Positions 8,237-35,271 of a DNA stretch of 41,855 bases are shown here, in pieces. Source of the stretch: an uncultured bacterium (GTDB taxonomy: Bacteria > Cloacimonadota > Cloacimonadia > Cloacimonadales > TCS61); NCBI GenBank assembly GCA_963981005.1, contig CAXCCM010000002.1, positions 1 through 41,855 on the forward strand. Direction: 5' to 3'. Numbering within the stretch: position 1 is the stretch's first letter; the number at the start of each line of letters is the position of its first letter. The translations under genes were made by a program, and so were the position numbers. The notes beneath the pieces were generated by a model that worked only from the letters and a program-made list of their open reading frames with translations, was not told the DNA's origin and did not search any database.

Positions 8237-9337
8237 ATGGCAAAAATAATTTATAGTTTATCAGGCGAAGGATCTGGGCATTCTTCACGTTCAAGGGAGA
8301 TGATAACTCATCTTATAAAGAGAGGGCATACCGTAAAAGTAGCCAGTTATGATAGGGGTTATAAGAACCTAAAAGATGATTTTGATGTTTTGGAAATTGA
8401 AGGATTCTCGATAGTTAGTGAAGATAATAAAGTCTCGATCAGTAAAACTTTTACCCAGAACTTCAATACGATCTTAGATAGATTTGAAGCTTCAAATACA
8501 CTAAAACAAAAGTATTTTAAAGAGTTCCAACCCGACTGCGTTATCACCGATTTTGAACCAATGGCTGCCTATCTGGCTAACGAGTTGGATGTACCGCTAA
8601 TTACAATTGATAACCAGCACCGTATGCGCTATATGGAATTCCCATGCCCCTTTGAGTGGAAAGCAGAGGCACTTTTTATTGAAAACCTCATCCGCGTAAT
8701 GATCCCGCGTCCCTGCGTTTCGCTGGTTACAACCTTCTACTTTGGCGAAAAGAAAAACGAGCGCACATTTACCTTCCCACCAATTTTAAGGCAATCTGTA
8801 ATTAATGCCAAACCGTCAATCGGAGACTATATTCTTGTATATGCAACCCAGGAATATGATTCTCTGATAGAAAATATACAAAATTATAAGAGAGAAAAGT
8901 TCATTATTTATGGCTTCAATGAAGATAAGGTTGAAGAAAATCTTACTTATAAAACCTTCAGCAGAGAGGGTTTTTTACAAGATCTAGCCGGAAGTAAGGC
9001 AGTAATTGCAACTGCCGGATTTACACTTATGACAGAATCTTTTTATCTTGGGAAACCCTATCTGGCACTGCCTATGAAGGGACAGTTTGAGCAAGTATTG
9101 AACGGGTTAATGCTGGATGAACTGGAATACGGCAAAAGCACACATGATCTTAAAAAGGAGAATATCTCAGCCTTCTTGTATGATATTCCGGAATATACAC
9201 AAAACCTTAAAAGTTATAAACATAGAGATAATAGTACGATCACTGAAATGCTAGATATGCTTCTTGAAAATGATCTGAAATTGCTACTTGAATTTCATGA
9301 TAAACGCAGAACAATCTTTCATTTTGATGAAAAATAG
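8237..9337 (+). CDS. GT-B glycosyltransferase (family 28 / MJ1255-like)
   Basis: N-terminal GEGSGHSSRS loop, a C-terminal ATAGFTLMTESFYLGKP motif, and a length of 366 aa. Confidence 0.7.
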   Translation: MAKIIYSLSGEGSGHSSRSREMITHLIKRGHTVKVASYDRGYKNLKDDFDVLEIEGFSIVSEDNKVSISKTFTQNFNTILDRFEASNTLKQKYFKEFQPDCVITDFEPMAAYLANELDVPLITIDNQHRMRYMEFPCPFEWKAEALFIENLIRVMIPRPCVSLVTTFYFGEKKNERTFTFPPILRQSVINAKPSIGDYILVYATQEYDSLIENIQNYKREKFIIYGFNEDKVEENLTYKTFSREGFLQDLAGSKAVIATAGFTLMTESFYLGKPYLALPMKGQFEQVLNGLMLDELEYGKSTHDLKKENISAFLYDIPEYTQNLKSYKHRDNSTITEMLDMLLENDLKLLLEFHDKRRTIFHFDEK

Positions 9338-9407
9338 GAATAAAATTATGAGAAGAAAAGATAGAGAGATCACAGACAAAAAGAATATTCAGAGGATAAT
9401 TTCTAAA
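9191..9407 (+). repeat. Left copy of the ~216-bp direct repeat (intact GT 3' end plus the first ~20 codons of a PNPOx-type gene)
   Basis: It aligns with 35056-35271. By eye there are about 13 mismatches and 1 indel. The core 9238-9312 is identical to 35103-35177. Confidence 0.9.
9348..9407 (+). pseudogene. 5' fragment of a PNPOx-family gene (MRRKDREITDKKNIQRIISK...)
   Basis: It matches the start of the intact gene at 35212 (MRRKDREITDKKKMQMIISK). Homology stops at about 9407 and the frame then runs into unrelated sequence. Confidence 0.8.
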
Positions 9408-9659
9408 ACTAACAAATCCAATAGCCAGGCTCTCATTATATTTTCGTATCATGGGATATAATATTAGTGCAAATCCGATGTATATGGGAAACAAGGTAAA
9501 TTGGAAAAAAGCTCCTGTTAATACTTGATTTTTATTTGCGGAAACTTCTGTAAGATAGTCTGAACTTTCTACAGAAGGAACAACACTAAGAATGCCTGCA
9601 ACCATTCCAATAATAATTAGTATTCCTGCCATGATTGCGGTCTTTCTGTTTGAATCCAT
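9408..9659 (-). pseudogene. Truncated DUF4386-like membrane protein (N-terminal ~82 codons only)
   Basis: MDSNRKTAIMAGILIIIGMVAGILS...LYPMIRKYNESLAIGFV with an AAGGAA RBS. The reading frame then continues into the antisense of the direct repeat. The 151-aa ORF-track call (9240..9695) is therefore a chimera. Confidence 0.6.
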
Positions 9660-9771
9660 TAATATTCCTTTATTAAACTCTAATTTTTTTATCATTGTCT
9701 GTAAGAAACTTTATAGTTTTACTTATCGAATCATTACCTAACCAAAATAAGTGTCCATATTCATTATTCCA

Positions 9772-10497
9772 TTATGTTGATGCCACATTATAAATCACGG
9801 GCATTTGCCCCTTCCACTTATTCCATAAATTTTCTTCCGTGATCAAATTAGCCATGAAGTGAGCAACATTAATTCTACTTGTTTTGCCAGCATCAAATAT
9901 TGGACTTCTTATGGGTGAAGAATGAACTGTATATTCTGAGACTTCAACTTCATTAATTAATGTATCAGGCCTTACCGCAATCCATTCAATAATTTTATTA
10001 CGCATACTTATCGTGTCGAATAAATATTCTATTGCTGATTCATTATCTCGTTGCGGTGGTGATAAAAATCGCATAATCTTCATTACTAAATTCTCTTTTT
10101 TATTGAATTTCTCATTCTGTAATTTATTGATGCACGCTGTAGTGTTCATCAATATTATTTTTATAGTTCTATTTGTACTTATATCATTAACAATACTAAT
10201 AACCCTAATCAATGAATCAGTTACGAGCTTGTAGGGTTTCCCTAATATTCCCTTTATCGAAAGATTATGACCTAGACAGAATATTACGGCATCAACATTA
10301 TTTAAACATTGTTTCAACTCTTTATTATCAATTTCTAATATGCTTGCATTTATTATTTCTAAGCGCTCGCTACTTTTTATAGAATCAAATTTTTCTACAT
10401 TTCTTGTAAATGCTTTAACACTAATACCACGTTTCAATAATTGTGTAACGACGTTAAACCCCGTAGCTCCATTAGCGCCTAATACTAAGACTTTCAT
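9772..10497 (-). CDS. NAD(P)H-binding Rossmann-fold oxidoreductase (NmrA/BVR-B-like), paralog 1
   Basis: MKVLVLGANGATG dinucleotide-binding motif and an AAGGAGA RBS. It shares about 45% identity by eye with 16940..17671, including PDTLINE and GQMPVIYN. Confidence 0.7.
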   Translation of the reverse strand: MKVLVLGANGATGFNVVTQLLKRGISVKAFTRNVEKFDSIKSSERLEIINASILEIDNKELKQCLNNVDAVIFCLGHNLSIKGILGKPYKLVTDSLIRVISIVNDISTNRTIKIILMNTTACINKLQNEKFNKKENLVMKIMRFLSPPQRDNESAIEYLFDTISMRNKIIEWIAVRPDTLINEVEVSEYTVHSSPIRSPIFDAGKTSRINVAHFMANLITEENLWNKWKGQMPVIYNVAST

Positions 10498-13177: not shown

Positions 13178-14352
13178 TTAATCTCCTTTAGATTTTGATC
13201 CATTTTGGCTATCTTGTTAGTCATTTCAACGCAAATACGATCAGTAACTCCAAAATCACACGAATTGGTAGCTACAACATAAGCTCTATCTATTGCAGGT
13301 GCGACCATAACTGCAGCATACCATATCTCATTACTTCCTCCATGTACTAGCACTATTCCTTTTGCCCATGGTTGTTCAGTCTGTTGGAATACCACCCATC
13401 CTGCTGCATAAAAACCAACAGGCTCAATTAACTTATTTAAAATTGTTCTATCAAGAAATGTGTTATCACCGGGTAATTGAAGAGATATAAATTTAGCCCA
13501 ATCTTCTATGCTGCAATGAATACGACCGGCAGGACTTATAGCTTCATTATAATATGCCCTACTGGGCTTCCATCTGTTTCCAATCCATGATTTTTTATGC
13601 CCCCAGGGTTGATCTGTTGAATTATTTTTTAAGGGATCACCGATACCGGCAGTTGTCATTCCAAGTGGTTCAAACAAGCGTTCTTTAATTAAAGTTTCCC
13701 AGCTTAAACCTGTTACTTGTTCTGCCATACAAGCAGCTATAATGTATCCGAAATTAGAATAATACCATTCTCCAACAGTATTTGCCGGAGCAAAAATTAT
13801 ATTATCCTTCAATAAAGAAAGTCGTCTTTCTTTGATCTCTAAATTAGTATGTGCTAACTCGTCTATAGGATTTTTAGGAAGACCTGCTCGATGAGTCAAT
13901 AATTGCCAAAGAGTTATATTTTCAAAACCAGCATGTATGTTATTCTTTAATTCAGGGATGGCTTCAATCAATTTCATATCCCAGCTTAATTTGCCATCCT
14001 CTACAAGAGTTGCAAGCATTGTAGCTGTCATCGCTTTTGCGCATGATCCAATATGAACAAGGTCTTCATCGGTCATAGCCACATTAGTGCCAGCTTTACG
14101 AACTCCCGCTGATCCAATAGCAAGAACACTATCACTAGAAATAATTGCAGCTATCATTCCGGGTGCATTTCCTTCTTTTACAATTTCAGATAGAGCTTTG
14201 CTAATCAGCTCATTTTTGTTAGATTCCAATTTATCTTGAGCGTAACTAGGAATAGTCGTAACTATAGAAGTTGCCATTAATATTACAGGTAGTATTAAAT
14301 ACTGAAACCTGTTTTTGAAGTTGTTTATTTTTAACATAATTATCTGGATCAC
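13174..14352 (-). CDS. Secreted serine hydrolase of the class C beta-lactamase / PBP4*-like fold
   Basis: SxxK (SCAK), YxN (YSN) and an HGG third motif, plus a signal peptide ending SYAQD. The start could instead be the ATG at 14337. Confidence 0.75.
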   Translation of the reverse strand: MIQIIMLKINNFKNRFQYLILPVILMATSIVTTIPSYAQDKLESNKNELISKALSEIVKEGNAPGMIAAIISSDSVLAIGSAGVRKAGTNVAMTDEDLVHIGSCAKAMTATMLATLVEDGKLSWDMKLIEAIPELKNNIHAGFENITLWQLLTHRAGLPKNPIDELAHTNLEIKERRLSLLKDNIIFAPANTVGEWYYSNFGYIIAACMAEQVTGLSWETLIKERLFEPLGMTTAGIGDPLKNNSTDQPWGHKKSWIGNRWKPSRAYYNEAISPAGRIHCSIEDWAKFISLQLPGDNTFLDRTILNKLIEPVGFYAAGWVVFQQTEQPWAKGIVLVHGGSNEIWYAAVMVAPAIDRAYVVATNSCDFGVTDRICVEMTNKIAKMDQNLKEIK

Positions 14353-14373
14353 CTTGGTCTAGACTACCCTTAT

Positions 14374-16884
14374 CTATTTATTAATGATAATATTTTGCAT
14401 TGGTTCTTCAAGAATTGTAACTTCCGGCAGACTGTCTTTCAATATCTCTATTGTCTTTAAAACCTCATTCTCTCCATCTTTATTGAACATAGAGAAATGC
14501 CCTAATATGATATGTTTTGGCTTTAAATAATTTTTTATTATTTCAATCCCCGGGCTATTGTCTCCCCATAAAAACCCACGATTAATAATTGCTAAATCAA
14601 TTGTTGAATTTTTTATTCCTGATAAATCATATTCCATCTCTCCACTCACAAGACTTCCTTCCCAGGCGTTTCCACATGCATCACCACCAATAAATATATT
14701 CATTCCTTCAATTGTAAATAGGAAACCAAGATTTTTGCTAGTACCGTTTCCATCAGCATGTCTTAATCTGAATACTTTTACATCTATTCCGCTAGCTTCT
14801 ATGCTGATAGATCTATATAAATCTGGTAATACTTCTTTTACACGGCATGTATCTGCTTTGTTTTCCAAAGCCATTTTCAATCTCTCTGATGTTTTGTTGT
14901 TGCAAATTACATTTAATTTATCGCTATTTATCATATATTCCGCAACCATATCAGGTGAGAAATGATCACCATGATCATGTGTAATAAGCATAAGATCCGC
15001 AGAGTTAAAAGGTTCTTCATGTTTGTTCATTTTTTTTACAATTTGCTTTGAAGGTGTTAAATATGAATCAAATCCCTGCTCAAAAAGAGCATCAACTATA
15101 ACAGTTTTATTGGCAGATGAGATCATATAACCCATATTAGCTATATATGTAACTTTGATTTCTGCTTTTCCTACTCCATTAAAGTTGATAGATCTTTCTT
15201 TTGATAATTTACCCCCTGTATTTTTAAGGTAATCAAAAATATCTTCATTTCCCCAATCTTGGGCTATGCTCAATGCAGTTCTTCCAGTGTTATCAACTGC
15301 ATTGATATCAGTTTCACGATCTATCAATAATTTTGTTAACTTTTTATAATTATGCATTACCGAATAATGCAATGCTGTTTTATTTAAACTATCAACTGCA
15401 TTAACATCAGCACCTTTTTCTACTAATTTTTTGATAATTGCATAATCACCACCAATTACTGCATTATGCAGGAAACTTCTTCCTATTTTATCTTTATTGT
15501 TAAAATCAGTGCATTCCTTTAATAATGTTTTTGCAACATTTGTTTGACCATTTGATAAAGATATGTGCAGCAATTTGTTTATCTCATGTTTATCATCAGG
15601 AAATTTCGCTCCTTTCTTCAAGATCAAATCTGCTATCTCTTTATTATTACCTTCTATTGCAGTTACCAGAGCAGTTTTCTCATTGTTATCAACTAAGTTT
15701 AAATCGGCTCCAGCATTTATTAAATACTCACTGATATCATTTGAATTGCTTCTCAAAGTTATGTGTAAAGCTGTTTCCATATTATTATTTTGGATATCAA
15801 TATTTGCGCCGTTTTTTACCAATTTTTTTACAAGGGATAAATCTCTATGTCTTAGAGACATTATTAAAGCATCAATTTTTGTTGTAGGATTTTGATAATT
15901 TATATCAGCTTTATTTTCTAATAAAAAATCACTTATCTCATTTTTTCTGTAATATATTGCAAAAATGAGTGGAGTATATCCAGAATTTGTCGAATCAACA
16001 AGACCGGGATTTTCTTTAACTAGATCTTTTACTTCTGCAATATTTCCATCCCTGATTAAAGTAAATATTGTCTGTGGTTGTTGTATCTCTTCTACATCTT
16101 CAAATATAAATTCAATTCCTCTGTAGACATCAGTATATGGAACATGTCCTTCGCCTTCTAATTCTTCCATTTTCCACTTTAGGCCTTTTGGTGCGTTGTT
16201 TTCTAAAAGTTTTCGTAGTGAAGGCATAGTCGTAATCACAGAATTATAATCCTTTTCACCATAAACAATATATACTTTTTTGTTAAGATTTTCTATGGCC
16301 TTAAATAATTCAGTAGTTTGATTTAAGACATAATTATTTTCATAACCCAGCATTGGGCTACTCAATATGTAGGATGAAAACAGATCAGGATCAGTATTTA
16401 GAATATAGGTTGCAAACATTCCAGTATTAGAAAATCCAGCAACAATTCTTTGAGAATCTGTTTTATATTCTTTCTCTATATAAGGAATTATTTCTTTCTT
16501 TATAGATTTCAGAAATTTTTTACCCACAGCTTTATTTTCAGGATTTCTGGTAATTTTAAAAGGGAAAACTTCTCCTCTACTTCCATCATCACAAATTCCT
16601 ACAATAATCATTTCCGGAATTCCGTTACTCCCGCCCAAATCTCTGGCAGCAGAATATACGCGTTCAAAAGAGAATTGAGGATAAAGTACATAAAGCACAG
16701 GATATGTTTTTAACGTATCATACACATCGGGTAAACTAATCATTAGTTCTCTTTCATTACCATAAACTTCCGAATCAAAGGAAATTCTTTTTCCTATTGA
16801 TATATCCTTGTTTGTTTGAGCTTGTAATTGTGCAAAGCTAAAATAGAATAATCCTACTAATACTAAAAATAGCGTTCTTTTCAT
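14374..16884 (-). CDS. Secreted tri-domain protein: alpha/beta esterase, ankyrin repeats and an MBL-fold hydrolase
   Basis: Signal peptide ending LQAQ. The esterase part has YPVLYVL..GFSNTG (GxSxG). There are at least 6 ankyrin repeats (GYTPLIFAI.., ETALHITL.., KTALVTAI.., RSFLHNAV.., KTALHYSV.., RTALSIA). The C-terminus has ITHDHGDHF (HxHxDH). Confidence 0.8.
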   Translation of the reverse strand: MKRTLFLVLVGLFYFSFAQLQAQTNKDISIGKRISFDSEVYGNERELMISLPDVYDTLKTYPVLYVLYPQFSFERVYSAARDLGGSNGIPEMIIVGICDDGSRGEVFPFKITRNPENKAVGKKFLKSIKKEIIPYIEKEYKTDSQRIVAGFSNTGMFATYILNTDPDLFSSYILSSPMLGYENNYVLNQTTELFKAIENLNKKVYIVYGEKDYNSVITTMPSLRKLLENNAPKGLKWKMEELEGEGHVPYTDVYRGIEFIFEDVEEIQQPQTIFTLIRDGNIAEVKDLVKENPGLVDSTNSGYTPLIFAIYYRKNEISDFLLENKADINYQNPTTKIDALIMSLRHRDLSLVKKLVKNGANIDIQNNNMETALHITLRSNSNDISEYLINAGADLNLVDNNEKTALVTAIEGNNKEIADLILKKGAKFPDDKHEINKLLHISLSNGQTNVAKTLLKECTDFNNKDKIGRSFLHNAVIGGDYAIIKKLVEKGADVNAVDSLNKTALHYSVMHNYKKLTKLLIDRETDINAVDNTGRTALSIAQDWGNEDIFDYLKNTGGKLSKERSINFNGVGKAEIKVTYIANMGYMISSANKTVIVDALFEQGFDSYLTPSKQIVKKMNKHEEPFNSADLMLITHDHGDHFSPDMVAEYMINSDKLNVICNNKTSERLKMALENKADTCRVKEVLPDLYRSISIEASGIDVKVFRLRHADGNGTSKNLGFLFTIEGMNIFIGGDACGNAWEGSLVSGEMEYDLSGIKNSTIDLAIINRGFLWGDNSPGIEIIKNYLKPKHIILGHFSMFNKDGENEVLKTIEILKDSLPEVTILEEPMQNIIINK

Positions 16885-16939
16885 TTTAATTCCTTTCGTT
16901 TTTTGTTTTAATTACATAAACATTTAAGTAGAAACCTAA

Positions 16940-17671
16940 CTAATCTTCATTATTGTAGATCACCGGCATTTGACCTTGCCACTTCTTCCATAAATCTGGT
17001 TCCATTAGAAGCCTGGCCATGAAATTACCTACATTTATTCTACTTGTTCTACCTGGGTCAAATACAGCGCTCCTTATGGGTGAACGGTATATCTGATATT
17101 CTGTTACGATATCTTCATTTATTAAAGTGTCTGGTCGAATAGACACCCATTCAATGAATTTATTATTCTGTCCGATTCTCAATCTTAAATAATCTGCAGC
17201 AGCTTCATTATCACGGTGAGGTGGAAGAAGCAGATGGATTAAGCTAAACACGATTTTTTGCCCCAACGATGTTAGCTCAGCAAGATCTTTGTTACGCACA
17301 GCTGTAGTATTCATCAAAACAAATTTAACCGGTTTTTGGGAAGAACCTGTTTCGATAGCTTCACATAACAATCTAACCGAGTCAGTCACCAGTTTTCTGG
17401 GATTGCCGAACATGCCTTTAAAGGTAAGGTTATGACCCAGGCAAGAGGCAACTGAATTACAATCAATCAAAAAGCTCTGGATTTCCTCTAAAGTAAGCTC
17501 AGAAATTGAAGCTTTAATCACAGTTACTTTCTTATTAGTCTGCCATTTATCAGCTACTTCACTGGTGGGACGGATAACCACTTTTACGTCTTGCCCCATC
17601 TTTAGCAGCTGCTCTACCAACTGCTTTCCTGTAACGCCACTGGCACCTAATACTAATGTTTTCATACTCAT
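16940..17671 (-). CDS. NAD(P)H-binding Rossmann-fold oxidoreductase, paralog 2
   Basis: LVLGASGVTG motif. It is collinear with 9772..10497 along its whole length. Confidence 0.7.
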   Translation of the reverse strand: MSMKTLVLGASGVTGKQLVEQLLKMGQDVKVVIRPTSEVADKWQTNKKVTVIKASISELTLEEIQSFLIDCNSVASCLGHNLTFKGMFGNPRKLVTDSVRLLCEAIETGSSQKPVKFVLMNTTAVRNKDLAELTSLGQKIVFSLIHLLLPPHRDNEAAADYLRLRIGQNNKFIEWVSIRPDTLINEDIVTEYQIYRSPIRSAVFDPGRTSRINVGNFMARLLMEPDLWKKWQGQMPVIYNNED

Positions 17672-17689
17672 ATTTACATTTCTCTTATA

Positions 17690-18625
17690 TTATTTTAAAC
17701 TTTCAGGTTTTCGTAACTTTCTAATTATATCAGTAGAAACCCAGAAGAAATCCTGTCCTGGTGTATGTCTCATAAAGAACATGTATTTCCCATCAGGAGA
17801 GACTGTAGGAAAGCGCTCTCTCAAATCGGTATTAACTTTATCTCCCATATTGATTGGATACCCCCATTTATCATCGTCAGTTTTAAAACTAATATACAAA
17901 TCAACATCACCAAATCCACCCTCATGCATCGCTGCAAAAATTACATATTCTTCCTTTGGAGACATATAGAAATTCCATACCGGACGAAATTCCTTATGTA
18001 TGATAACACTATCTGCAAAAGTGAAATTATTATTATTATATGTGTATTTAGAAATCTTGCCGAAAAGGTTCTTATAGACAATTCCTTTGTTGGAGAATAT
18101 TGGGTTATAATCCTTATCTTCGGTATTATATGGTTGTCCAACATCTACTGGTTTATCACTCCATTTGCCATCTATCTTTTCAATGTAATAGGTGTTCATG
18201 TCGGATGAAACCCAGGGACTTCTAACCTGGTAAAAGAATAATTTATTTCCATCTGGGGAGAATACAGGTCCGCCATTGAGTCCGTGCGGATTATTTTTTA
18301 TGAACGCGGCCAACTGGGGCTTAGACCAGATACCATTTTCAAATTTAGAATAAAATATCTGTTCAGTATTTTTGGATCCATCTTCTGATTTGTACTTTCC
18401 GGTCCAGGCTGACCAGTAAATCTCATCTCCTTGGGGAGAAATAGCAACCTGGCAGTGTTCTGCCCAAGTGGAATCTGATACAATACCGGGAGCAAAAACT
18501 TCAGGAATTAGCCCGGGTGGTGTAAGCCCAAAATAGGCATCTTTTGTTTCTATAAAATTCTTTTCTGTTTGAGTACAACTTACAAAGCTTAGTATTGCAA
18601 GCATTAACAATAATAGTTTTTTCAT
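17690..18625 (-). CDS. PD40/TolB-like beta-propeller lipoprotein
   Basis: Lipobox LSFVSC. Repeated SP(D/Q)G motifs are present (AISPQGDEIYWS, VFSPDGNKLFF, TVSPDGKYMFF). AAGGAAG RBS. Confidence 0.7.
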   Translation of the reverse strand: MKKLLLLMLAILSFVSCTQTEKNFIETKDAYFGLTPPGLIPEVFAPGIVSDSTWAEHCQVAISPQGDEIYWSAWTGKYKSEDGSKNTEQIFYSKFENGIWSKPQLAAFIKNNPHGLNGGPVFSPDGNKLFFYQVRSPWVSSDMNTYYIEKIDGKWSDKPVDVGQPYNTEDKDYNPIFSNKGIVYKNLFGKISKYTYNNNNFTFADSVIIHKEFRPVWNFYMSPKEEYVIFAAMHEGGFGDVDLYISFKTDDDKWGYPINMGDKVNTDLRERFPTVSPDGKYMFFMRHTPGQDFFWVSTDIIRKLRKPESLK

Positions 18626-18639
18626 TTTTCAATCTTCCT

Positions 18640-19602: not shown

Positions 19603-19604
19603 AT

Positions 19605-25775: not shown

Positions 25776-25836
25776 TTGTTTTCCTCCAATTTTTTATATT
25801 ACTTTTTTTGATACTTTTACTTAATCTGCTTTTTTT

Positions 25837-28347
25837 TCATTTCATTAGGATCATTTTCTTTGTAGATGTGAAATTTAGAGTTTTCATTTTGTAGAGGTAG
25901 ACTCCACTTGCAACAGTCTTACCTGAATCATTAGTACCATTCCACGAAATGATATGATCTCCAGATTCAACTACACCTCTGATAAGTCTCTTAACAAGTT
26001 GACCGCGTAGATTGTAAATTTCCAAAGTCATGTTTCCGAGTTCTTTGACTGAATAGGCAATATTTGTTTCAGGATTGAAAGGATTTGGATAGTTTCCAGC
26101 AAGTTCTGTTTTAGCAATGATGTTATTGCCAGCATCAGCTCCAATATAGGTAAAATCTATTGTCACAAGCTCAGACATACCGTCATCATAAACTGCTTCT
26201 AAGCCGGCTGTGTAAGTCTGACCGCTAGAAAGACTACTGAATTGCCAGAAGCTATCATCAGTACTGCCCTCAAAATATCCATCGAGATAAACATTGTAAC
26301 TCTCCAGTTCTCGGCTGGAATTTACATTGTGATCCATCACATCAACAAATACTTTTTCACGTTGAGCTGTAGTATGTGCACCAACTGGTGCATCCCAAGT
26401 GAAAAGGCCATCATCATCAACTGCTAGGTTTGTTGGTGGATCAAGAGTTGGTATTACTTCATCTGTAAGCATCACATCATCAACATACCAATAGTTGAAA
26501 TCAGATGAGTTTCCTACAAAATAGAAGCACATTTGAAATGTAGCGGATCCAACATCAGTTGTGGTAACAACAAAATTAACTGTTTCAGGTCCAATTCCTC
26601 CGGTTGGAACAATCGACCATGCATCATTCCAGATTGTACCATCGCTGCTAGTTGCTACACCCAGTATATATCCACCTGAATAGTCATCAACACAGTGCTT
26701 GAATTCTATAAATATCTCTGTCATATCTGATGTATCCAGAACCATTGTACACATTCTTGATATACCAATAAAACAGGGTTCCCAAGCTAGCACCATCTCA
26801 ATTCCAGAACCGCCTGCATGGTTTCCTGTAGAAGATCCCCAATTTGATTGGCCCATTTCATCACTATGCCAACCAGTTGGTGGAACACCATCACTGAAAT
26901 CTTCTGAGATCAAAAAACCCTCTGAACCAATAAAAACTAAATTGGAAGTAACACTTCCACCATCACCAATTAAATTATAGGGAACAACTGTGTAGCAATA
27001 TACTCCAGCTAAAGGAATTGTATTATCTATATATGATGTTGTTGAACCAGTTACTTCAAATAGAACACCGTCATTTCTTTCGATATGATAACCACCAATA
27101 GCATTGTTAAAAGCACCACCGTGCAATCCGGTTGTGGGATTATCCCAGGTAAGTGTTCCGGATAGATCGCCGGGAGAGGTTTGAGTTAAATTAAGATTAT
27201 TAACTGCTGCCGGAGCATCTTCTCCAACCCAAATAGTACTCTCAACCGTGATTCCTTCACCAGCATCATTAAAACCAACAACACCATAAGTATAAATTCC
27301 TGCATATAGCATACTAGAATCTACGTGAGAACCTGTGCCACCAACGGTTGGAGTTGTATCTGTGTAGATGAGTGTTCCATCTCTGTAGACTCTCATCTCA
27401 TCAAGATCTGTAAGAGTGTTTCCGCCAATTGTCGTAGTTGGGCAAGTCCAGCCAATATCAGCTTGGTAAATACCATTAGCGCCAGGGGTAACAGTTACAT
27501 CTGTAGGAGCTGAGGGTGAATCAGGAGATTCAGCATCACGCAGTTCCATTCCGTAAAGAAAATCAATTTCTCCTTGTCCAAGACAACCTAAAATAGTTTT
27601 ACCAGGAACCAGTCCACCTTCGTAATAGAATGCACCTCCAATAACTCCGGCATTACCAAGAGTAACGGAGTAAGAAGTTCCGGTTGGTGCACCACTTAAA
27701 TCATATTGAATAAATGTGGTTGGTTCAGCAAAAAGCCATAAGCAATCTGCATAGGAGTCATAAGCCAAACCATAGGCGGAGTTATCATCAGCATAAATAT
27801 TGATTACATTACCATTAACATCAAATTCATAAATGGGATCACTAAAACTCTTTGTCCAGAAATGGTTACCGTCATAAGCTAAAGCACGGATAGTTCCAAA
27901 TGATGTGCCAAATTCTGTAGTCCAGGTTTCTGAAGCAATATCAAATGAGAAGAAATTAGTCTCATTTCCACCATAGATTTTACCTTCAGAGGCAACATAT
28001 GCCAGGTCCCGAATTCCCCAGACGAATGCGGCAGCTGGTTGTTCGTAACTATTAACTAAGGTTCCTGCAATCGGATCTATTTTGTAGAGGTAGTTGGGAT
28101 CTACGCCATTTCCACCACCGGTAGCCCATATATTAGTACCATCATATTCTACACCAAGCAGTTGATTATCATTTGCTATGCCCTCCACATCAAGTGAATA
28201 TATGATCTCTCCAACTTCGTCTGTGATCACAGGGATTGTTGATGCTGGTCCAACATCATTCAACAACGGTGCTGCTTCTACTCTTTTATCAGCAAATAAA
28301 CCTGCTGAGACCAGCAATACTAACACTAACAAAAAAAACATTTTCAT
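25837..28347 (-). CDS. T9SS cargo protein, paralog of 22089..25775 with a different N-terminal propeller-like region
   Basis: I place the start at MKMFFLLV (AAGGAGA RBS) rather than the ORF-track 28386, which would overlap the upstream receiver gene. It has the same FN3-like and anchor-J-like core and the same T9SS CTD. Confidence 0.8.
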   Translation of the reverse strand: MKMFFLLVLVLLVSAGLFADKRVEAAPLLNDVGPASTIPVITDEVGEIIYSLDVEGIANDNQLLGVEYDGTNIWATGGGNGVDPNYLYKIDPIAGTLVNSYEQPAAAFVWGIRDLAYVASEGKIYGGNETNFFSFDIASETWTTEFGTSFGTIRALAYDGNHFWTKSFSDPIYEFDVNGNVINIYADDNSAYGLAYDSYADCLWLFAEPTTFIQYDLSGAPTGTSYSVTLGNAGVIGGAFYYEGGLVPGKTILGCLGQGEIDFLYGMELRDAESPDSPSAPTDVTVTPGANGIYQADIGWTCPTTTIGGNTLTDLDEMRVYRDGTLIYTDTTPTVGGTGSHVDSSMLYAGIYTYGVVGFNDAGEGITVESTIWVGEDAPAAVNNLNLTQTSPGDLSGTLTWDNPTTGLHGGAFNNAIGGYHIERNDGVLFEVTGSTTSYIDNTIPLAGVYCYTVVPYNLIGDGGSVTSNLVFIGSEGFLISEDFSDGVPPTGWHSDEMGQSNWGSSTGNHAGGSGIEMVLAWEPCFIGISRMCTMVLDTSDMTEIFIEFKHCVDDYSGGYILGVATSSDGTIWNDAWSIVPTGGIGPETVNFVVTTTDVGSATFQMCFYFVGNSSDFNYWYVDDVMLTDEVIPTLDPPTNLAVDDDGLFTWDAPVGAHTTAQREKVFVDVMDHNVNSSRELESYNVYLDGYFEGSTDDSFWQFSSLSSGQTYTAGLEAVYDDGMSELVTIDFTYIGADAGNNIIAKTELAGNYPNPFNPETNIAYSVKELGNMTLEIYNLRGQLVKRLIRGVVESGDHIISWNGTNDSGKTVASGVYLYKMKTLNFTSTKKMILMK
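26145..27535 (-). repeat. Paralogous block shared with 23195-24585
   Basis: See the partner entry. The 3' ~310 nt (25837-26150) also matches 22089-22400, at an offset of 3,748 nt. Confidence 0.85.
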
Positions 28348-28363
28348 TATTATCTCCTTATTT

Positions 28364-28762
28364 TCAAATGATTTCCCTTTTATCATGTATATCTTCTGCT
28401 TTTATTCTCTGAATTGATTCAATTAGAAATTCATAGTTAAATGGTTTTTTCATGAACAAATAGGCACCCCGATCTAAAGCTTCAGCCTGGGTTTCTTCAT
28501 CTGCAAAGGCAGAATAAATAATTACTTTGGCTTCATTATTCATTTGTAAGATCAATTTTAATACATCGATCCCATTGAGTTTTGGCATCCGAAAATCTGT
28601 TATAATAAGCTGGTAAATATTTTTATCATATTTTGATAGAGCTTCTTCCGGGTCTTTGAAGCCATGATTTGGAAAACCACCTATTTTCAGCGCATACCGT
28701 ATACTTTTTAATGTAAATTCATTATCATCAATCACCATTATCAATTTATTATCCTTTTCCAT
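28364..28762 (-). CDS. Stand-alone response-regulator receiver, first gene of the T9SS-cargo operon
   Basis: MVIDDNEF, LIITDFRMPKLNG and MKKP motifs. GGGAGGAAA RBS. Confidence 0.8.
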   Translation of the reverse strand: MEKDNKLIMVIDDNEFTLKSIRYALKIGGFPNHGFKDPEEALSKYDKNIYQLIITDFRMPKLNGIDVLKLILQMNNEAKVIIYSAFADEETQAEALDRGAYLFMKKPFNYEFLIESIQRIKAEDIHDKREII

Positions 28763-28799
28763 TTTTCCTCCCCCACTTTTTTCTCACAACTAAGAAAGT

Positions 28800-28815
28800 A
28801 GCAAATAGTGTACCA
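28800..28815 (-). promoter_or_regulatory. Sigma-54 (-24/-12) promoter P2
   Basis: The minus strand reads TGGTACACTATTTGCT, with correct GG-N10-GC spacing. It ends 38 nt upstream of the ATG at 28762. Confidence 0.7.
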
Positions 28816-28978
28816 AACAGAAAAGGTCGAGAAATGTAAGACTTATATGTTTAATATATAGATAGTTAAAGCTTTGAGGAACAAATTGTAATGAGTTATA
28901 TGAAAAGGTAGATCAATTCATTTTGAATCGTTCAAATTGAACTATAAATTCAGAATGGATCGGATAAAATTTGTTAGT

Positions 28979-30412
28979 TTATAGATCTCCGATTATTCGA
29001 CGAACCTTATTAATGGAAATTTTCAGATAGGAAGCAGTTTTAGTTTTATTTCCTTCAAACTTAGCTAGGATTTTTTCTACAACTTTCTTTTCAATATCAT
29101 ACAAACTAAGGTCATGTTCGGGAAAACTAATACTCAAACTATCAGAAGAATCAGTTGAATTCATTTTTTTATCCAGCAGAGATTTGATCCGATCTGCATT
29201 CAAAAGATCATCATTAGAAAGAAAGGCAGCTTGTTCCATTGTATTTTGGAGCTGTCGTACATTGCCAGGCCAATCGTAATTTAATAGAACCATAGTAGCT
29301 TCTTTAGTCAGAATTTTGACAGGTTGTTTCCTTAACCTGGCAAACTCTTCTAGGAACATTCTGGCTAAAGGAAGGATGTCTTCTTTACGTTGTTGCAAGG
29401 TAGGAATTGCTATTTTGGCTTTATTGATCCGGTAAAATAGATCCAAACGAAAACGATTTTCTTCTATCCCTTTTTCAAGTTTACAATTTGTTGCACAGAT
29501 CAATCGAAAATTAAGAGGAATTTTCCTAGATCCACCTACCCTGTAAATCTCTCTATCTTGCAGAGCTTTTAACAATTTCGGCTGCATTTCCAGCGGTAGT
29601 TCTCCAATCTCATCCAGAAATAGAGTCCCACCATTCGATAGTTCCATTTTACCCATCTGGCCTTTTCTGCTGGATCCCGTAAAAGCTCCAGCTTCATGGC
29701 CAAATAGTTCACTTTCGAATAAAGTAGGCGTGATTGACGCACAGTTTAAGGAGACAAAAGGTTTACCAAAATCATTATCTCCATAATGTATCATTCTGGC
29801 GATGATCTCTTTCCCAGTTCCAGAATCACCTTGAATTAATACGGGAATTGTAGAATCACCATGAAGTTTTTTAGCCATTTCAGTTACCTGTTTCATCTCT
29901 TCAGAAAAAATTCCAACTTTACCAATTCCTGAAACTTCTGCATAAGCATATTGCAGTTTTTTTAGTTTATCATTGATCAGGGCAGTTTCAGATTGAACCT
30001 TTTCATCGAACTTATTACGTAAAACAGTATTTTCCTTAAGCAGCTTTTGATGATCTTCCACCTTGCTAATAACAGTGACGAGCTCCTCAAGATCAATTGG
30101 TTTGCTCAGGTAATCGTAGGCACCTGCTCTTAATGCACCTAAAATACTTTGCGTATCTGTATGACCGGTTATTAATACAATGTCTGTATCTTTACCATCA
30201 GGATTGTCTTTGATCTTCTTGGTTAATGTAAAACCATCCATACCAGGCATGCGAATATCACTGATAATCATGGGAAACGAAGAATTTGAAAAGATCTTTT
30301 CACCTTCTAAAGCATTGTCGCAAACGGTTACTTCATGATTCAATTGATACTTCAGGAAATCGCTTATCGCTTTAGAAATCAATTTATCATCATCAATAAC
30401 TAATATTCTCAA
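28979..30412 (-). CDS. NtrC-family sigma-54-dependent response regulator (receiver, AAA+ and Fis-type HTH)
   Basis: ISDIRMPGMDG receiver, GDSGTGKE Walker A, ESELFGHEAGAFTGS (GAFTGA loop) and a C-terminal HTH (KTKTASYLKISINKVRR). The start overlaps the kinase stop. Confidence 0.9.
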   Translation of the reverse strand: MRILVIDDDKLISKAISDFLKYQLNHEVTVCDNALEGEKIFSNSSFPMIISDIRMPGMDGFTLTKKIKDNPDGKDTDIVLITGHTDTQSILGALRAGAYDYLSKPIDLEELVTVISKVEDHQKLLKENTVLRNKFDEKVQSETALINDKLKKLQYAYAEVSGIGKVGIFSEEMKQVTEMAKKLHGDSTIPVLIQGDSGTGKEIIARMIHYGDNDFGKPFVSLNCASITPTLFESELFGHEAGAFTGSSRKGQMGKMELSNGGTLFLDEIGELPLEMQPKLLKALQDREIYRVGGSRKIPLNFRLICATNCKLEKGIEENRFRLDLFYRINKAKIAIPTLQQRKEDILPLARMFLEEFARLRKQPVKILTKEATMVLLNYDWPGNVRQLQNTMEQAAFLSNDDLLNADRIKSLLDKKMNSTDSSDSLSISFPEHDLSLYDIEKKVVEKILAKFEGNKTKTASYLKISINKVRRIIGDL

Positions 30413-32103
30413 CTTTCTGCTCCCTCATTTTTTTTAAACGTTATCACAAACTCAGCACCACCGGATTTTTTATTTCCGGCCTTGATGTCAGCATTATATT
30501 TTTCTACATAATTTTTCACGATTGCCAAACCTAACCCCATTCCTTTGTCAGGTGATTTGGTTGAATAAAAAGGGTCGTAAATTTTTTCTCCCACTTCCAA
30601 AGCGAAGCCTGATCCATTATCAGAGATTTTTATTTCAGCATGATCGCCCTTACTCCTGGTACAAATATGTATTCGCTTATCTTTTTGGTTTGAATCATCC
30701 AGAGAATGGATTGCATTTGTGACAATATTCAGAATAATCTGTTCGATATGGATTGATTCGGCACAAATAAGTAGTTTCTGCTTTGCCAATTTAGTCTCAA
30801 TAAACACTCCATGCGAATAAAGCTGTCTTTCGATTAAATTTAGAGCATGTTTCACAGCTTCGTTAATGTCTATCGGTTTAAGCGAATTTGTCTTTGGAAG
30901 CTTCCAGAATGAGCGCATGTGTTTAATTATCTCATCGATTCGATTGCTAGCTTCGACAATATTTTCCAAGCCTTCTGCCAGGTATTCCGGTAAGATCAGA
31001 TCATTTTTTTTGTTCCAATATAAGATGCTTTCAGCACTCATTTTAATAGCACAGACAGGTTGATTGATTTCGTGAGTTATACCGCCTGAGATCACACCGA
31101 TTGAAGCTAATCTTCCGGCTTTTTCCATCATCTGTTTGGAAAGAAGTTCTTTTCTCTCTATTTCATGAGAAGAAGAGACATCTGCCAATCTCTTTGTTAA
31201 TTCTTCTGTGAAAAGAGAGTCTTTAATTTTTGAGTGTTTTTTATAAAATTTCAAGGCAGATTCAAAATCTTTCTGTTTTTCGTAATCCCTTGATAAATAT
31301 AGATATATATTTTTGATAAATTCTTTATATCCCAATTCTTCTGCCATTTGGAGTGTCTTGGAATGTGTTTTTACTGCTTCCTTGAATTGCCCCAAATTGC
31401 AATAAGAAGCTCCCAGATTATTCATAGCTGGTATCAATATCTTTTTATCTTCTAACTCACGAGCAACATCAATAGCTTTAGTAAAATATTGGATAGCCCG
31501 TTCATGCTGATCTAAAGCCATATATGCTTCACCAATATTCACAAGTATGATAGCTTCACTTCTTTTTAGATTGTGTTTTGAACAAAAGGAAGATGCTTCT
31601 TCCAGATACTTTAGAGCTTCATCATATCTTTTCATTCTAAGGTATACAATTCCGGTATTGATAATAATTGATTCAGTGTTATAAGTTGCATTATAATCAT
31701 CTTTTTGTGGAACGTATCTCTTTGCTTTCAGGAAATATTCCAGGGCTTTATCCAAATCGTTCATGTTTAAATAAATAAGACCAACATTTCCCAGAGAGAT
31801 GGCAATAGCAGGATTATTATCGATCTTCTTATAGACGTTGAGAGTTTGTAAAAAATAATTCAAAGCTTTATCATAATTATTGGATGAAACATTGATTAAG
31901 CCTAAGGTGTTCAAAGCTGATGCTTCCAAGTTCTGAAGATTATTATTTTGGGCCATGTTCAGAGTGAGTTGAGCAAATTTTTTACTGTTTTTCAAATCGG
32001 ATTGATGCCAATAACTGACAGCAAGTTTGCTGAATAACTCTACTTTTTTCTCAAGATTCTGCTCAGTGTTAGCTTGATGAATCCTTTCCTTCATACTTTT
32101 CAT
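30409..32103 (-). CDS. Cytoplasmic TPR-repeat sensor histidine kinase
   Basis: The N-terminal ~300 aa are TPR-like repeats (..ALNYFLQTL.., ..ALEYFLKA.., ..AIQYFTKAI..) with no hydrophobic helices. It has an H-box GGITHEINQP, a G1 box SDNGSGF and a G2 box GMGLGLAIV. I place the start at MKSMKER, after a TAGGAGCA RBS. Confidence 0.85.
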   Translation of the reverse strand: MKSMKERIHQANTEQNLEKKVELFSKLAVSYWHQSDLKNSKKFAQLTLNMAQNNNLQNLEASALNTLGLINVSSNNYDKALNYFLQTLNVYKKIDNNPAIAISLGNVGLIYLNMNDLDKALEYFLKAKRYVPQKDDYNATYNTESIIINTGIVYLRMKRYDEALKYLEEASSFCSKHNLKRSEAIILVNIGEAYMALDQHERAIQYFTKAIDVARELEDKKILIPAMNNLGASYCNLGQFKEAVKTHSKTLQMAEELGYKEFIKNIYLYLSRDYEKQKDFESALKFYKKHSKIKDSLFTEELTKRLADVSSSHEIERKELLSKQMMEKAGRLASIGVISGGITHEINQPVCAIKMSAESILYWNKKNDLILPEYLAEGLENIVEASNRIDEIIKHMRSFWKLPKTNSLKPIDINEAVKHALNLIERQLYSHGVFIETKLAKQKLLICAESIHIEQIILNIVTNAIHSLDDSNQKDKRIHICTRSKGDHAEIKISDNGSGFALEVGEKIYDPFYSTKSPDKGMGLGLAIVKNYVEKYNADIKAGNKKSGGAEFVITFKKNEGAES

Positions 32104-32264
32104 TTTTGCTCCTACTTTAAGCATTAATAATTAGCTATCATAATAGAAATTATTAATATCTTCTTCCTAATTACCTTATGTGCGTGGCGTTGATTTATTG
32201 CTTACTGCTTAAATCTACTTCGAAAAAATATTCATCTTAATACTATCAATTTCTGCATAATTAT

Positions 32265-32585: not shown

Positions 32586-32601
32586 TGGCATACTAATTGC
32601 A
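32586..32601 (+). promoter_or_regulatory. Sigma-54 (-24/-12) promoter P4 for the FtsX-family permease
   Basis: TGGCATACTAATTGCA is a near-perfect match to the consensus. It ends 34 nt upstream of the ATG at 32635. Confidence 0.75.
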
Positions 32602-32634
32602 ACATTTTAAAAAAAATATGTGGGAGAAAGAAAC

Positions 32635-35043
32635 ATGTTCAAGAACTATATCAAAATCGCTTACCGCAACATCCTTAAACAAAAAACATATTCAGCTATT
32701 AACATTTTTGGATTAGCTCTGGGCCTAACAGCCTGTATTTTGGTCGGACTATATATTTATCAAGATTTCAACTATGATAATTATCATGCAAATGGTGAAA
32801 ATATATATCGTGTAAGTATAGAAATGGTTACTCCAGATGATACTTTCAATTTTGCACAAACACCTGCTCCGGTAGCGCCAAGTTTAAAGCAAAATTATCC
32901 TGAGATCAATAAAATTTCCCGGATCTTTTTTGCCAAAAACGATCTTATCACATACGAAAAGAACAAATTCTATGAGGAAGAAATCGTCTTTGCTGATGAA
33001 GATTTTTTCAAGATCTTCAGCTACAGCACATTACAAGGAAATCCTAATACGTTCTTGCAAAAAGATAACTCTGTTGTGATAACAAAAAAAATAGCTGATA
33101 AATATTTTGGTACAGAAAACCCCGTTGGTAAAATCCTTAATTATAATAGCAGGATCGATCTGGAAGTTGTTGGTGTTGTCGAGAATGTACCAATAAACTC
33201 ACATTTCACTTTTGATATGGTAGTTACATATAATTCTCTTATTCAGCTTCCGCAGGGTAGATACTTAGATCAATGGGGAGCAACTTTTGGTTCTTACACT
33301 TATGTGCTAATGCATCCGGGAACTGATCTTGATAAATTTGTAGATAAAGCTGGTCCCTTCCTTACAGAAAAAATGGAAACAACCGATAGAGTTCATGAAT
33401 CTGTTATTTTGCAACCGATTAAATCTATTCATATGTTTTCTAATCTTGAGGATGAAATAAATCCCAATAGCTCAATTACATATATACTAATTCTAGGGTC
33501 AATTTCGCTTTTCATACTAATATTAGCATGCATCAATTTTGTAAATTTAACAACTGCCAGAGCAGTGAAAAGAGCTAGAGAGATTGGTGTGAGAAAAGTG
33601 TTTGGTGCCTTCAGATTACAATTAGTCAGACAATTCCTGGGTGAATCTATCATAACGACATTGATAGCATTAGCATTTGCATTTGTGTTTGTTGAGCTTT
33701 TCATTCCACTATTTTCTCAGTTAATAGGAACAACACTGGTCTACAGTCTTTTTGATAACCCTTATATCTTACTAATTATATTAGCAGGTTCTCTAATTAT
33801 TGGAATTTTAGCTGGTTTGTATCCAGCTTTTGTACTCACACATTTCCAACCTGCTTTAGTAATGAAAGGTGCAACCAAACAAGGAAAAAGTAGTTCAGCA
33901 TTACTTAGAAAAGGCTTAGTTCTATTTCAGTTTTCCATTTCCATAATTCTCATTATTTTCACAATTCTGATAAATAAACAGATTAATTTCATGCGAAATT
34001 TTGATATGGGATTTGAAAAAGAACAGATTGTTGTTCTTAAAACCCCAGAAAGAATGTCCCGTAATTCTGAAACTATTAAAGAAGAAATAAATGCAATTCC
34101 CGGAGTTATCGAGTCATCAACTAGTTTGGGTATTCCGTTGCAGAATAGCGGTTTTGGAACAAATCTAAGCCCATATGCTGATTCTGATGAGGATGAATTT
34201 TCTATATCTGTGAAGATGATCGACTCCGAATACATAGATTTTTACCAGATTCCACTATTGGTAGGCAGAAAACTTACTGAGACTGATGAAGCAAATTATG
34301 CAAATGTGACTGTTGTGAATGAAGCAACTGTAAAAAAGCTTGGATTTGCAAATAATGAAGATGCCCTAGGGCACAACTACACAATTGGTTTGAGTGATGG
34401 AGTAAAAAGATTTTCACCCGAGATAGTGGGTGTGATAGAAGATTTTCATTTCAATTCTCTACACGAAGAAGTCTCACCTCTTTTATTTATGTATTGGTAT
34501 TTTCTATTTCAAGAGATCTCTATAAAGATCAGTCCACAAAATGTTCCTGAAACAATGAAAGAGATTAAACTGGTTTGGGAGAAATTTTATCCAGAACATC
34601 CATTTGTATATTCATTTTTAGATGAAGATATAGATAAAATGTATAAAGCAGAAGCAAGATCTTTCCGCGTGATCTCAACCTTCTCATTCTTAGCAATTAT
34701 TATTGCTTGTATGGGTCTCTTGGGACTCACATTCTACACCACCGAACAACGAAGAAAGGAAATTGGAATTCGCAAAATCTTAGGTGCTTCCATACCGGGG
34801 ATTGTAAGGGATATCTCTTTAGAGTTTTTAAAATTAGTTGTTATCGCCAACGTTATAGCTTGGCCGATAAGCTATTTCCTAGTTAAAAAGTGGCTCATGA
34901 ACTTCCCATATAAAATTGATATTGGACTGGACGTATTTTTATTAGCCAGCGGGTTAGCATTATTAATATCTTTTGTAACTATTGGCTATACCGTTATCCG
35001 CAGTGCTTATAGTAATCCTATAGACAGTATTAAGTATGAGTAA
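32635..35043 (+). CDS. ABC-transporter permease of the FtsX/MacB type (two FtsX modules plus a MacB-like periplasmic domain)
   Basis: MFKNYIKIAYRNILKQK is the typical N-terminus. Two FtsX four-helix modules are present, each preceded by RAREIGVRK / RRKEIGIRK. I place the start at the ATG after a GGGAGAAAG RBS. No ATPase gene is adjacent. Confidence 0.85.
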   Translation: MFKNYIKIAYRNILKQKTYSAINIFGLALGLTACILVGLYIYQDFNYDNYHANGENIYRVSIEMVTPDDTFNFAQTPAPVAPSLKQNYPEINKISRIFFAKNDLITYEKNKFYEEEIVFADEDFFKIFSYSTLQGNPNTFLQKDNSVVITKKIADKYFGTENPVGKILNYNSRIDLEVVGVVENVPINSHFTFDMVVTYNSLIQLPQGRYLDQWGATFGSYTYVLMHPGTDLDKFVDKAGPFLTEKMETTDRVHESVILQPIKSIHMFSNLEDEINPNSSITYILILGSISLFILILACINFVNLTTARAVKRAREIGVRKVFGAFRLQLVRQFLGESIITTLIALAFAFVFVELFIPLFSQLIGTTLVYSLFDNPYILLIILAGSLIIGILAGLYPAFVLTHFQPALVMKGATKQGKSSSALLRKGLVLFQFSISIILIIFTILINKQINFMRNFDMGFEKEQIVVLKTPERMSRNSETIKEEINAIPGVIESSTSLGIPLQNSGFGTNLSPYADSDEDEFSISVKMIDSEYIDFYQIPLLVGRKLTETDEANYANVTVVNEATVKKLGFANNEDALGHNYTIGLSDGVKRFSPEIVGVIEDFHFNSLHEEVSPLLFMYWYFLFQEISIKISPQNVPETMKEIKLVWEKFYPEHPFVYSFLDEDIDKMYKAEARSFRVISTFSFLAIIIACMGLLGLTFYTTEQRRKEIGIRKILGASIPGIVRDISLEFLKLVVIANVIAWPISYFLVKKWLMNFPYKIDIGLDVFLLASGLALLISFVTIGYTVIRSAYSNPIDSIKYE

Positions 35044-35055
35044 AAAATCGGCTAT

Positions 35056-35202
35056 GAGTATACACAAAATCCCAAAAGTTATAAACATAGAGATAATAGT
35101 GAGATCACTGAAATGCTAGATATGCTTCTTGAAAATGATCTGAAATTGCTACTTGAATTTCATGATAAACGCAGAACTATCTTTCATTTTGATGATAAAT
35201 AG
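35056..35202 (+). pseudogene. Orphan 3' fragment of the glycosyltransferase gene
   Basis: It encodes ..YTQNPKSYKHRDNSEITEMLDMLLENDLKLLLEFHDKRRTIFHFDDK*, compared with the GT C-terminus ..YTQNLKSYKHRDNSTITEMLDMLLENDLKLLLEFHDKRRTIFHFDEK*. There is no upstream coding continuation. Confidence 0.85.
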
Positions 35203-35271
35203 GAGTAAAATATGAGAAGAAAAGATAGAGAGATCACAGACAAAAAGAAGATGCAGATGATAATTTCTAAA
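35056..35271 (+). repeat. Right copy of the ~216-bp direct repeat (orphan GT 3' fragment plus the start of the intact PNPOx gene)
   Basis: It aligns with 9191-9407. Confidence 0.9.

Follow-up and report, generated by a model that had tools for sequence, protein, structure and literature searches.

Direct repeats around an inserted block of genes can be left by several kinds of recombination. Transposons duplicate 2-15 bp of their target. Illegitimate events can import or move large blocks of DNA, including by template switching during replication and, during transformation, by homology-facilitated illegitimate recombination (HFIR), which was reportedly described by de Vries and Wackernagel in 2002. 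Suicide plasmids enter the chromosome by Campbell-type insertion-duplication. For the prophage e14 of Escherichia coli, the relevant passage of PMC13626634 (citing Hill et al. 1989) describes an icd gene that extends into the prophage and a C-terminal pseudogene, icdC, at the other end; according to the same passage, recombination between the icd end copies can yield hybrids. Here we analyzed a stretch of 41,855 nucleotides from an uncultured bacterium of the Cloacimonadota (contig CAXCCM010000002.1, assembly GCA_963981005.1; hereafter the window), in which a pair of direct repeats brackets an inserted segment, S, lying between a glycosyltransferase (GT) gene and a PNPOx-family gene. We lean towards the view that S is a native 25.6-kb block that was set between GT and PNPOx by illegitimate, microhomology-mediated joins, without an element-encoded recombinase.

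The repeat pair, the ancestral site and the inserted segment

The structure consists of the following features, with coordinates in the window:
8237-9337, forward strand: intact GT gene (Pfam PF13528, Glyco_trans_1_3, E = 3e-111, profile positions 1-322)
9191-9407, forward strand: left repeat copy, with the GT 3' end, the spacer and 20 orphan PNPOx codons
9348-9407, forward strand: orphan PNPOx 5' fragment of 20 codons, from sequence reading and alignments
9402-9407, no strand: junction J1, a 6-nt microhomology (TCTAAA) common to the PNPOx and DUF4386 parents
9408-35055, no strand: inserted segment S, 25,648 bp with 17 genes, from Pfam scans
9408-9695, reverse strand: 5' part of a DUF4386 gene (Pfam PF14329, profile positions 1-81 of 210)
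32620-35043, forward strand: FtsX/MacB-type permease gene, the last gene of S (Pfam MacB_PCD and FtsX)
35044-35055, no strand: junction J2, 12 nt (AAAATCGGCTAT) between the FtsX stop and the right repeat
35056-35271, forward strand: right repeat copy, with the orphan GT 3' end, the spacer and the beginning of the functional PNPOx gene
35056-35202, forward strand: orphan GT 3' fragment, 48 codons plus stop, in frame and free of internal stops
35212-35676, forward strand: intact PNPOx-family gene (Pfam PF12900, Pyridox_ox_2, E = 1e-20, full length)

The left copy (217 nt) comprised the last 48 GT codons with the stop, a 10-nt spacer and PNPOx codons 1-20. It aligned with the right copy (216 nt) over 217 columns with 12 mismatches and one 1-nt indel, and a 75-nt core (9238-9312 = 35103-35177) contained no difference at all. 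Past the orphan PNPOx codons, the reading frame entered antisense DUF4386 DNA. The DUF4386 gene itself was cut after codon 86, counting from the conserved Met at 9659; its called open reading frame (ORF) of 151 aa extended as antisense of the repeat, compared to 230-242 aa for full-length homologues. No promoter or terminator within the repeat scored above background. A preliminary description of the window, made by eye, had given the repeat coordinates and the core exactly, with about 13 differences and one indel. Its account of the left copy as the intact GT 3' end plus ~20 PNPOx codons, and of the right copy as ~48 orphan GT codons plus the start of an intact PNPOx gene, was confirmed by the alignments and the Pfam match. 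It had also placed the edges of S correctly, in a partial DUF4386 gene (~82 codons noted, 86 kept) and 12 nt past the FtsX stop, and it rightly stressed that a repeat of 216 bp exceeds transposon target duplications.

In five related lineages (L032, L026, L128, L129, and L130), GT lay directly before PNPOx. The adjacency of the two genes is therefore ancestral and S is the insert, as had been proposed from the window alone together with a search for relatives of this kind. Relatives recovered by the GT scan were labelled Cloacimonadota, Fermentibacteraceae or Sabulitectum, and in the protein scan of species-representative genomes their GT was 78-87% identical in amino acids to that of the window. 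The gene order of L032 (hyp98-sig70-GT-PNPOx-lipoprotein-Bor-NUDIX) was collinear with both window flanks, with 14 nt between the GT stop and the PNPOx start. The empty sites of L128, L129, and L130 came from a metagenome scan with a degenerate pattern, in which a GT anchor and a PNPOx anchor stood ~248 nt apart; these sites too were collinear with one or both window flanks. The window PNPOx was 76-80% identical to the gene located 3' of GT in L032 and L128-L130, and the ancestral GT-PNPOx spacing was only ~10-15 nt. An empty site in the same species was discarded as a candidate, as the pattern scan yielded only relatives at 76-81% nucleotide identity.

The arrangement was then compared among contigs of the same population, which were found by exact-protein look-ups in SPAdes, MEGAHIT (k = 141), and JGI assemblies and in three NCBI metagenome-assembled genomes (MAGs). 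These contigs were 99.9-100% identical to the window. GT was followed by the truncated DUF4386 gene in 10/10 GT-bearing contigs shown, of 22 read, and FtsX, the orphan GT fragment, and then PNPOx followed one another in 10/10 PNPOx-bearing contigs shown, of 23 read. The right junction was likewise present in all seven FtsX-bearing places shown. J1 or J2 was found in more than 30 independently assembled contigs and MAGs from various samples and assemblers, and at least one MAG contig, of 40.5 kb (JABICE010000292.1), covered the whole structure including both junctions. The 13 diagnostic states were the same in all 15 left and 17 right copies typed, namely those whose 75-nt core could be matched; two variant left copies (L110 and L131) are additional. 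The arrangement is fixed in the sampled population.

S was tightly packed, with a largest intergenic gap of 495 nt. Its enzymes and repeat proteins included two NAD-binding proteins, an amidohydrolase-methyltransferase fusion, and Kelch, beta-lactamase-fold, esterase-ankyrin-MBL, PD40, transglutaminase-like, and SBBP proteins. In addition, S encoded two large paralogous surface proteins with type IX secretion (T9SS) sorting domains, as well as three response regulators with receiver domains, an NtrC-type sigma-54 activator, and a TPR histidine kinase. Pfam scans of ORFs of at least 95 aa, which covered every gene-sized ORF and left overlapping antisense ORFs unscanned, found no recombinase or transposase, phage or plasmid gene in S. 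There was no tRNA in S and no terminal inverted repeat pairing its two ends. The lack of integrase, transposase, and tRNA noted earlier was thus borne out by the Pfam scans and the tRNA search.

The composition of S was that of its surroundings. GC content was 0.350 in S and 0.348 in the flanks, the tetranucleotide correlation was r = 0.977, and chunks of S correlated with the flanks no less than with each other, so that the comparison of k-mers and GC content inside and outside the repeats, which the preliminary description had proposed, showed no contrast. In a relative (MAG JAOZPK), the PD40, Kelch, methyltransferase, NAD-binding, and DUF4386 genes occurred together on contig 14 with 73-87% amino acid identity, while the GT region lay on contig 1 with flank genes 67-85% identical. 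S and flank genes were equally diverged in JAOZPK and on separate contigs; the genes of S are thus as old in the lineage as those of the flanks and have another location in this relative. In its S genes, L104 was the closest relative (85-92% nucleotide identity); it had the beta-lactamase, SBBP, and FtsX genes contiguous and lacked window positions 14160-19624 and 21400-32194. With two internal blocks missing there, the S block itself appears plastic. The closest homologue of the window FtsX (90%) was also in L104, followed by another FtsX gene, and the closest relatives of S held the same genes in other orders. Given its native composition and its divergence, which equals that of the flanks, S reads as relocated native DNA and not as a foreign element. 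The earlier description of this DNA as acquired, in the sense of foreign, was not upheld by the composition, the JAOZPK copies or the gene orders in relatives.

Two pairs of related genes were also seen within S. The two adjacent T9SS-sorted proteins (22089-28386; 1228 and 849 aa) shared long segments at 77-96% nucleotide identity (repeat families D1-D6), which by sequence comparison indicates a probable recent tandem gene duplication inside S. The NAD-binding genes at 9772-10497 and 16940-17671 were paralogues (D7).

DNA had also entered the other side of GT. Between sig70 and GT (5753-8193), the window carried an AbiEi-like gene (DUF6088), two ORFs (6764-7237 and 7273-7671) into which an AbiEii gene is split, and ~560 nt without coding sequence. 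This region was absent in L020, L022, L025, L032, L129, and L130, where sig70 adjoined GT, and is apparently a second, independent insertion beside GT. In L021, a second, partial GT carrying a frameshift (8202-8665; the 5' end, codons 1-148, 84% nucleotide identity to the resident GT) was followed by a Fic-family gene (8695-9735) immediately upstream of the intact GT, with an AbiE pair downstream. Partial GT duplications beside inserted cassettes recur in this clade.

Smaller variants were observed among the population contigs. Differences between the window and otherwise identical contigs were packed in short dense tracts (12-332, 13501-13756, 18718-18751, 40803-41151, and others). The tracts point to a population that is close to clonal and often imports short pieces by recombination, or to assemblies in which co-occurring strains were mixed. 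A 40-nt tandem repeat between the lipoprotein and Bor-like genes (36394-36473; 2 copies, 98% identical) seemingly varied in copy number, with downstream genes displaced by at least 40 nt in L013 and L018. Within S, the histidine-kinase gene was broken after ~122 codons in four contigs (L122 1-305, break at window position 31756). The AT-rich DNA past this break matched nothing in the window and the contigs ended 305 nt on; the break may represent either a structural variant or DNA inserted into S.

Junctions and history of the two repeat copies

To judge the parents of J1, three intact DUF4386 homologues (L102, L103, and L123) and the right repeat copy were aligned with the junction. PNPOx-derived sequence reached position 9407, and the BLAST match to the DUF4386 parent stopped at 9402; if L102/L103 stands for the parent, the overlap grows to 7 nt (TTCTAAA, 9401-9407). 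A parental overlap of 6-7 nt is the signature of an illegitimate, microhomology-mediated join, and illegitimate joining must have occurred at least once at this locus.

At J2, the 12 nt between the FtsX stop and the right repeat aligned neither with GT nor with the DNA downstream of FtsX in L104, L099, L105, and L106, so that these four relatives supplied no parental sequence for a microhomology at J2. The octamer TATGAGTA stood on either side of the 12 nt (35033-40 and 35052-59), and the orphan GT fragment shared its reading frame with FtsX. The octamer pair and the shared frame may be a trace of how J2 formed.

Contigs with an intact DUF4386 gene in the context of S, which the preliminary description had suggested looking for, came down to a single case, probably a chimera. 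L108 (ERZ27237645 k141_76628) was 100% identical to window positions 14497-9402 over 5.1 kb and then continued into a full DUF4386 gene of 242 aa. Its right part was essentially identical to a separate DUF4386-amidohydrolase-hydrolase locus found on at least 24 contigs (L123-L127), some as long as 163 kb and in MAGs labelled Prolixibacteraceae. The switch fell within 30 nt that both sequences share and that are conserved among DUF4386 genes, and the hybrid protein occurred on one contig only. L108 was therefore rejected as an intact-DUF4386 allele of the same strain. In L099 (8270-8493; also in L100 and L101), a 72-aa DUF4386 fragment lay 4 nt from the 3' end of a convergent FtsX gene. This abutment was not accepted as proof of a circular permutation of S, as the gene was cut at codon ~68 compared to 86 in the window and the FtsX was only 62% identical; FtsX paralogues were also abundant in genomes of the L099-L101 type, which further weakens such a reading.

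The two repeat copies were 94% identical to each other and only ~75-81% identical to any relative, and they had many lineage-specific states in common, so the duplicated piece came from this lineage. The orphan GT carried three replacements that were derived compared to all relatives (L to P, A to E, and E to D), and the functional GT end carried one derived change. The orphan PNPOx differed from the functional copy by three changes, all of them non-synonymous; K to N and M to I were derived relative to L130, while the third difference (R versus M) received no polarity from relatives, and neither did the ribosome-binding site, which was GGAG before the working PNPOx and GGAA before the orphan. 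The orphan variants were absent from the 10-11 functional alleles sampled. The orphan halves carry most of the polarisable derived states, a pattern consistent with drift of the useless halves after a duplication; it is also compatible with a copy whose drift had already taken place elsewhere.

The 75-nt core was marginally longer than expected by chance for 13 randomly placed differences (P = 0.047), and gene conversion between the copies could be its source. In one contig (L131, Logan SRR7265442_744776), the left copy stood in its normal context and carried right-type states at four consecutive diagnostic sites (9313-9346), with a functional GT ending in ...HFDDK. This patch suggests gene conversion between the copies, or else an effect of assembly at k = 31. 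The same contig (P0145/L131) was rejected as the junction of a circle, as its left copy lay in normal chromosomal context with the right-type patch internal to it. In L110, the left copy had nine clustered differences (9236-9286), almost all synonymous. The possibility that this cluster was an unconverted native left allele, with the orphan derived from a foreign functional allele, was rejected in view of the short difference tracts found everywhere in the window; the L110 tract is an ordinary short recombination import.

Explanations for the insertion

The hallmarks of illegitimate joining were present at the locus, namely the microhomology at J1 and moved DNA that is ordinary chromosomal sequence of the same lineage. 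In the sequence of steps that we favour, two chromosomal break points 216 bp apart would have fallen at GT codon -48 (a) and at PNPOx codon 20 (b), and the stretch between them would have ended up on both sides of the insert as the repeat. This may have happened by unequal joining between sister copies, by template switching during replication, or through a duplication that was at first larger and that deletions then cut back. GT would have kept its own 3' end, and PNPOx its own start together with 156 nt of native upstream sequence; with both genes intact, the product would have been viable. Afterwards, the orphan PNPOx 5' end and the orphan GT 3' end would have drifted, and the copies would occasionally have exchanged sequence by gene conversion. 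The exact order of these events, the source of S (the same genome or a close relative), and the making of J2 are what we infer.

Several points weigh against illegitimate joining. We know of no well-characterised bacterial mechanism for a one-step insertion with a 216-bp target duplication. If S arrived by a copy-type route (template switching, or duplication followed by deletion), it should be present twice or its old site should show a scar. Assemblies that traverse S without a break speak against an identical second copy. The microhomology signature comes from J1; for J2, the relatives compared yielded no parental DNA downstream of FtsX. No empty-site relative above 90% identity was found, so the event cannot be dated and the pre-insertion sequence cannot be read directly. 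Finally, the 75-nt core, with P about 0.047, could be the mark of a homologous crossover of the Campbell kind.

Campbell-type integration is a serious competitor, though we consider it unlikely. It would start from a circle carrying S and a 216-bp GT-3'/PNPOx-5' fragment and proceed by a single homologous crossover at the GT-PNPOx junction. Such a circle could have come from an earlier integrated copy via recombination between the repeats, and could have spread between strains without an integrase. Direct copies of one fragment, the left ending at b and the right starting at a, are the textbook product of a single crossover, the 75-nt core could be the crossover or heteroduplex tract, and the copies appear to interact by homologous recombination, as L131 suggests. 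The L099 DUF4386 fragment, which abuts an FtsX 3' end, indicates that the two genes bounding S can lie side by side, an arrangement also expected on a circle, but that junction lies elsewhere in the gene and beside the distant FtsX. A prior illegitimate event would still be needed for J1, with its microhomology, and for J2. No circular or donor arrangement (FtsX-216 bp-DUF4386) was found in ~60 population contigs, assembled contigs being poor material for rare circles, and the scan of JGI metagenome contigs yielded no strain of this species that lacks S. That derived states lie mostly in the orphan halves is predicted by both Campbell-type integration and illegitimate joining. The orphan variants match no sampled relative's functional allele, and decay in situ fits at least as well as foreign import.

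It is doubtful, in our judgement, that S is a recombinase-less translocatable island, which would be excised as a circle via flanking FtsX paralogues or via its own 216-bp repeats and would re-enter by a homologous single crossover, with the captured 216-bp GT/PNPOx fragment serving as a portable 'homology handle'. If this were true, the locus would be a natural counterpart of suicide-vector insertion-duplication, and a sigma-54-regulated surface-protein module would be movable between strains with an empty GT-PNPOx site.

We regard as very improbable a decayed island of the e14/icd type, integrated in the GT 3' end with a replacement end so that the native end was displaced, and with its integrase and mobility genes lost since. 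The layout matches, with an intact gene at one boundary and, at the opposite one, a C-terminal pseudogene; the direct repeats derive from the 3' end of the target gene, and relatives have an empty target site. In this clade, the GT flanks are moreover a hot spot for small accessory modules, including AbiE (in the window and L021), Fic with a partial GT (L021), and, near GT in L023, a putative small two-gene toxin-antitoxin-like pair known from its ORF sequence only. Against this, S contained no recombinase gene or remnant and had no intergenic space longer than 495 nt. It starts in a truncated host-type gene and ends 12 nt past another, so its ends do not resemble those of an element. Its composition is native, and both the genes it contains and their local order are found again in the chromosomes of relatives. 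The duplication also extends 60 nt into PNPOx, which would be superfluous for an att region that restores a gene.

An assembly artefact, with strain variants or two loci mis-joined via the shared 75-nt core, is scarcely credible. Chimeras at short shared blocks do occur in the assemblies of this population, for example L108. However, both junctions recur in many independent assemblies, which excludes a chimera of this kind: the >30 contigs with J1 or J2 include k = 141 MEGAHIT contigs, which exceed the 75-nt core, at least one MAG contig (40.5 kb) crosses the whole structure, and the diagnostic differences are constant over contigs. Insertion of a transposon or insertion sequence is excluded by the lack of a transposase and of terminal inverted repeats and by a duplication of 216 bp instead of 2-15 bp.

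Regulatory genes of S and comparison with described systems

The regulatory genes and predicted sigma-54 sites of S are as follows:
28979-30412, reverse strand: NtrC-type sigma-54 activator gene (Sigma54_activat, E = 7e-61; Response_reg; HTH_8)
30409-32124, reverse strand: TPR histidine kinase gene (HATPase_c, HisKA, and TPR)
21433-21448, reverse strand: -24/-12-like site TGGCATAGAATATGCA, 35 nt upstream of the start of the SBBP operon
28800-28815, reverse strand: -24/-12-like site TGGTACACTATTTGCT, 38 nt upstream of the operon of a response regulator and a T9SS protein
32586-32601, forward strand: -24/-12-like site TGGCATACTAATTGCA, 19 nt upstream of the start of the FtsX ORF

All three sites were intergenic, and the region upstream of FtsX that holds TGGCATACTAATTGCA was conserved in L104. 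The sigma-54 motif was over-represented in the window, with 27 matches compared to 16.2 +/- 3.7 in shuffled sequences. The proposal that S carries a sigma-54 regulator together with its targets thus holds at the motif level, with an activator, a kinase, and three predicted sites.

We read the insertion of S as an ordinary accident of recombination, a rearrangement of a known type and no new class of element. It provides a clean natural case of a large chromosomal gene block relocated in an uncultured marine bacterium without mobile-element machinery. The block took along a two-component/sigma-54 regulatory unit with its likely target operons, and the genes on either side survive thanks to the long target duplication. 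When long direct repeats surround a block of genes, they are accordingly not automatically the att sites of an island, and chimeras and short recombination tracts in the metagenome contigs of this population can mimic 'alternative alleles'.

Compared to described systems, the locus resembles transposon and insertion-sequence insertions in that target sequence is directly duplicated on both sides of the insert. With e14/icd it shares an intact 3' end in one boundary repeat, an orphan C-terminal pseudogene at the opposite boundary, and copies that differ at few positions. Unlike S, in which no recombinase, phage or plasmid gene was found, e14 encodes a site-specific recombinase of its own and is excised upon SOS induction; the repeat at our locus also reaches beyond the intergenic spacer and into PNPOx, and the cargo is native in appearance.

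The resemblance to Campbell insertion-duplication by suicide plasmids lies in an insert between direct copies, the left joined at the 3' end of the fragment and the right at its 5' end, in genes that stay intact on both sides if the fragment spans a gene junction, and in the dispensability of an integrase. Our locus, in contrast, shows no sign of a circular donor or of a vector-like replicon, native chromosomal genes make up its 25.6-kb insert, there is a 6% difference between the copies, and one of the junctions between insert and fragment is a natural microhomology join. Microhomology-mediated illegitimate recombination usually deletes recipient DNA instead of duplicating 216 bp of it, and an insert of 25.6 kb flanked by a long duplication is an uncommon product. 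The locus is nevertheless like such events in the joining of unrelated sequences at the 6-7-nt microhomology of J1, with no dedicated enzyme encoded nearby.

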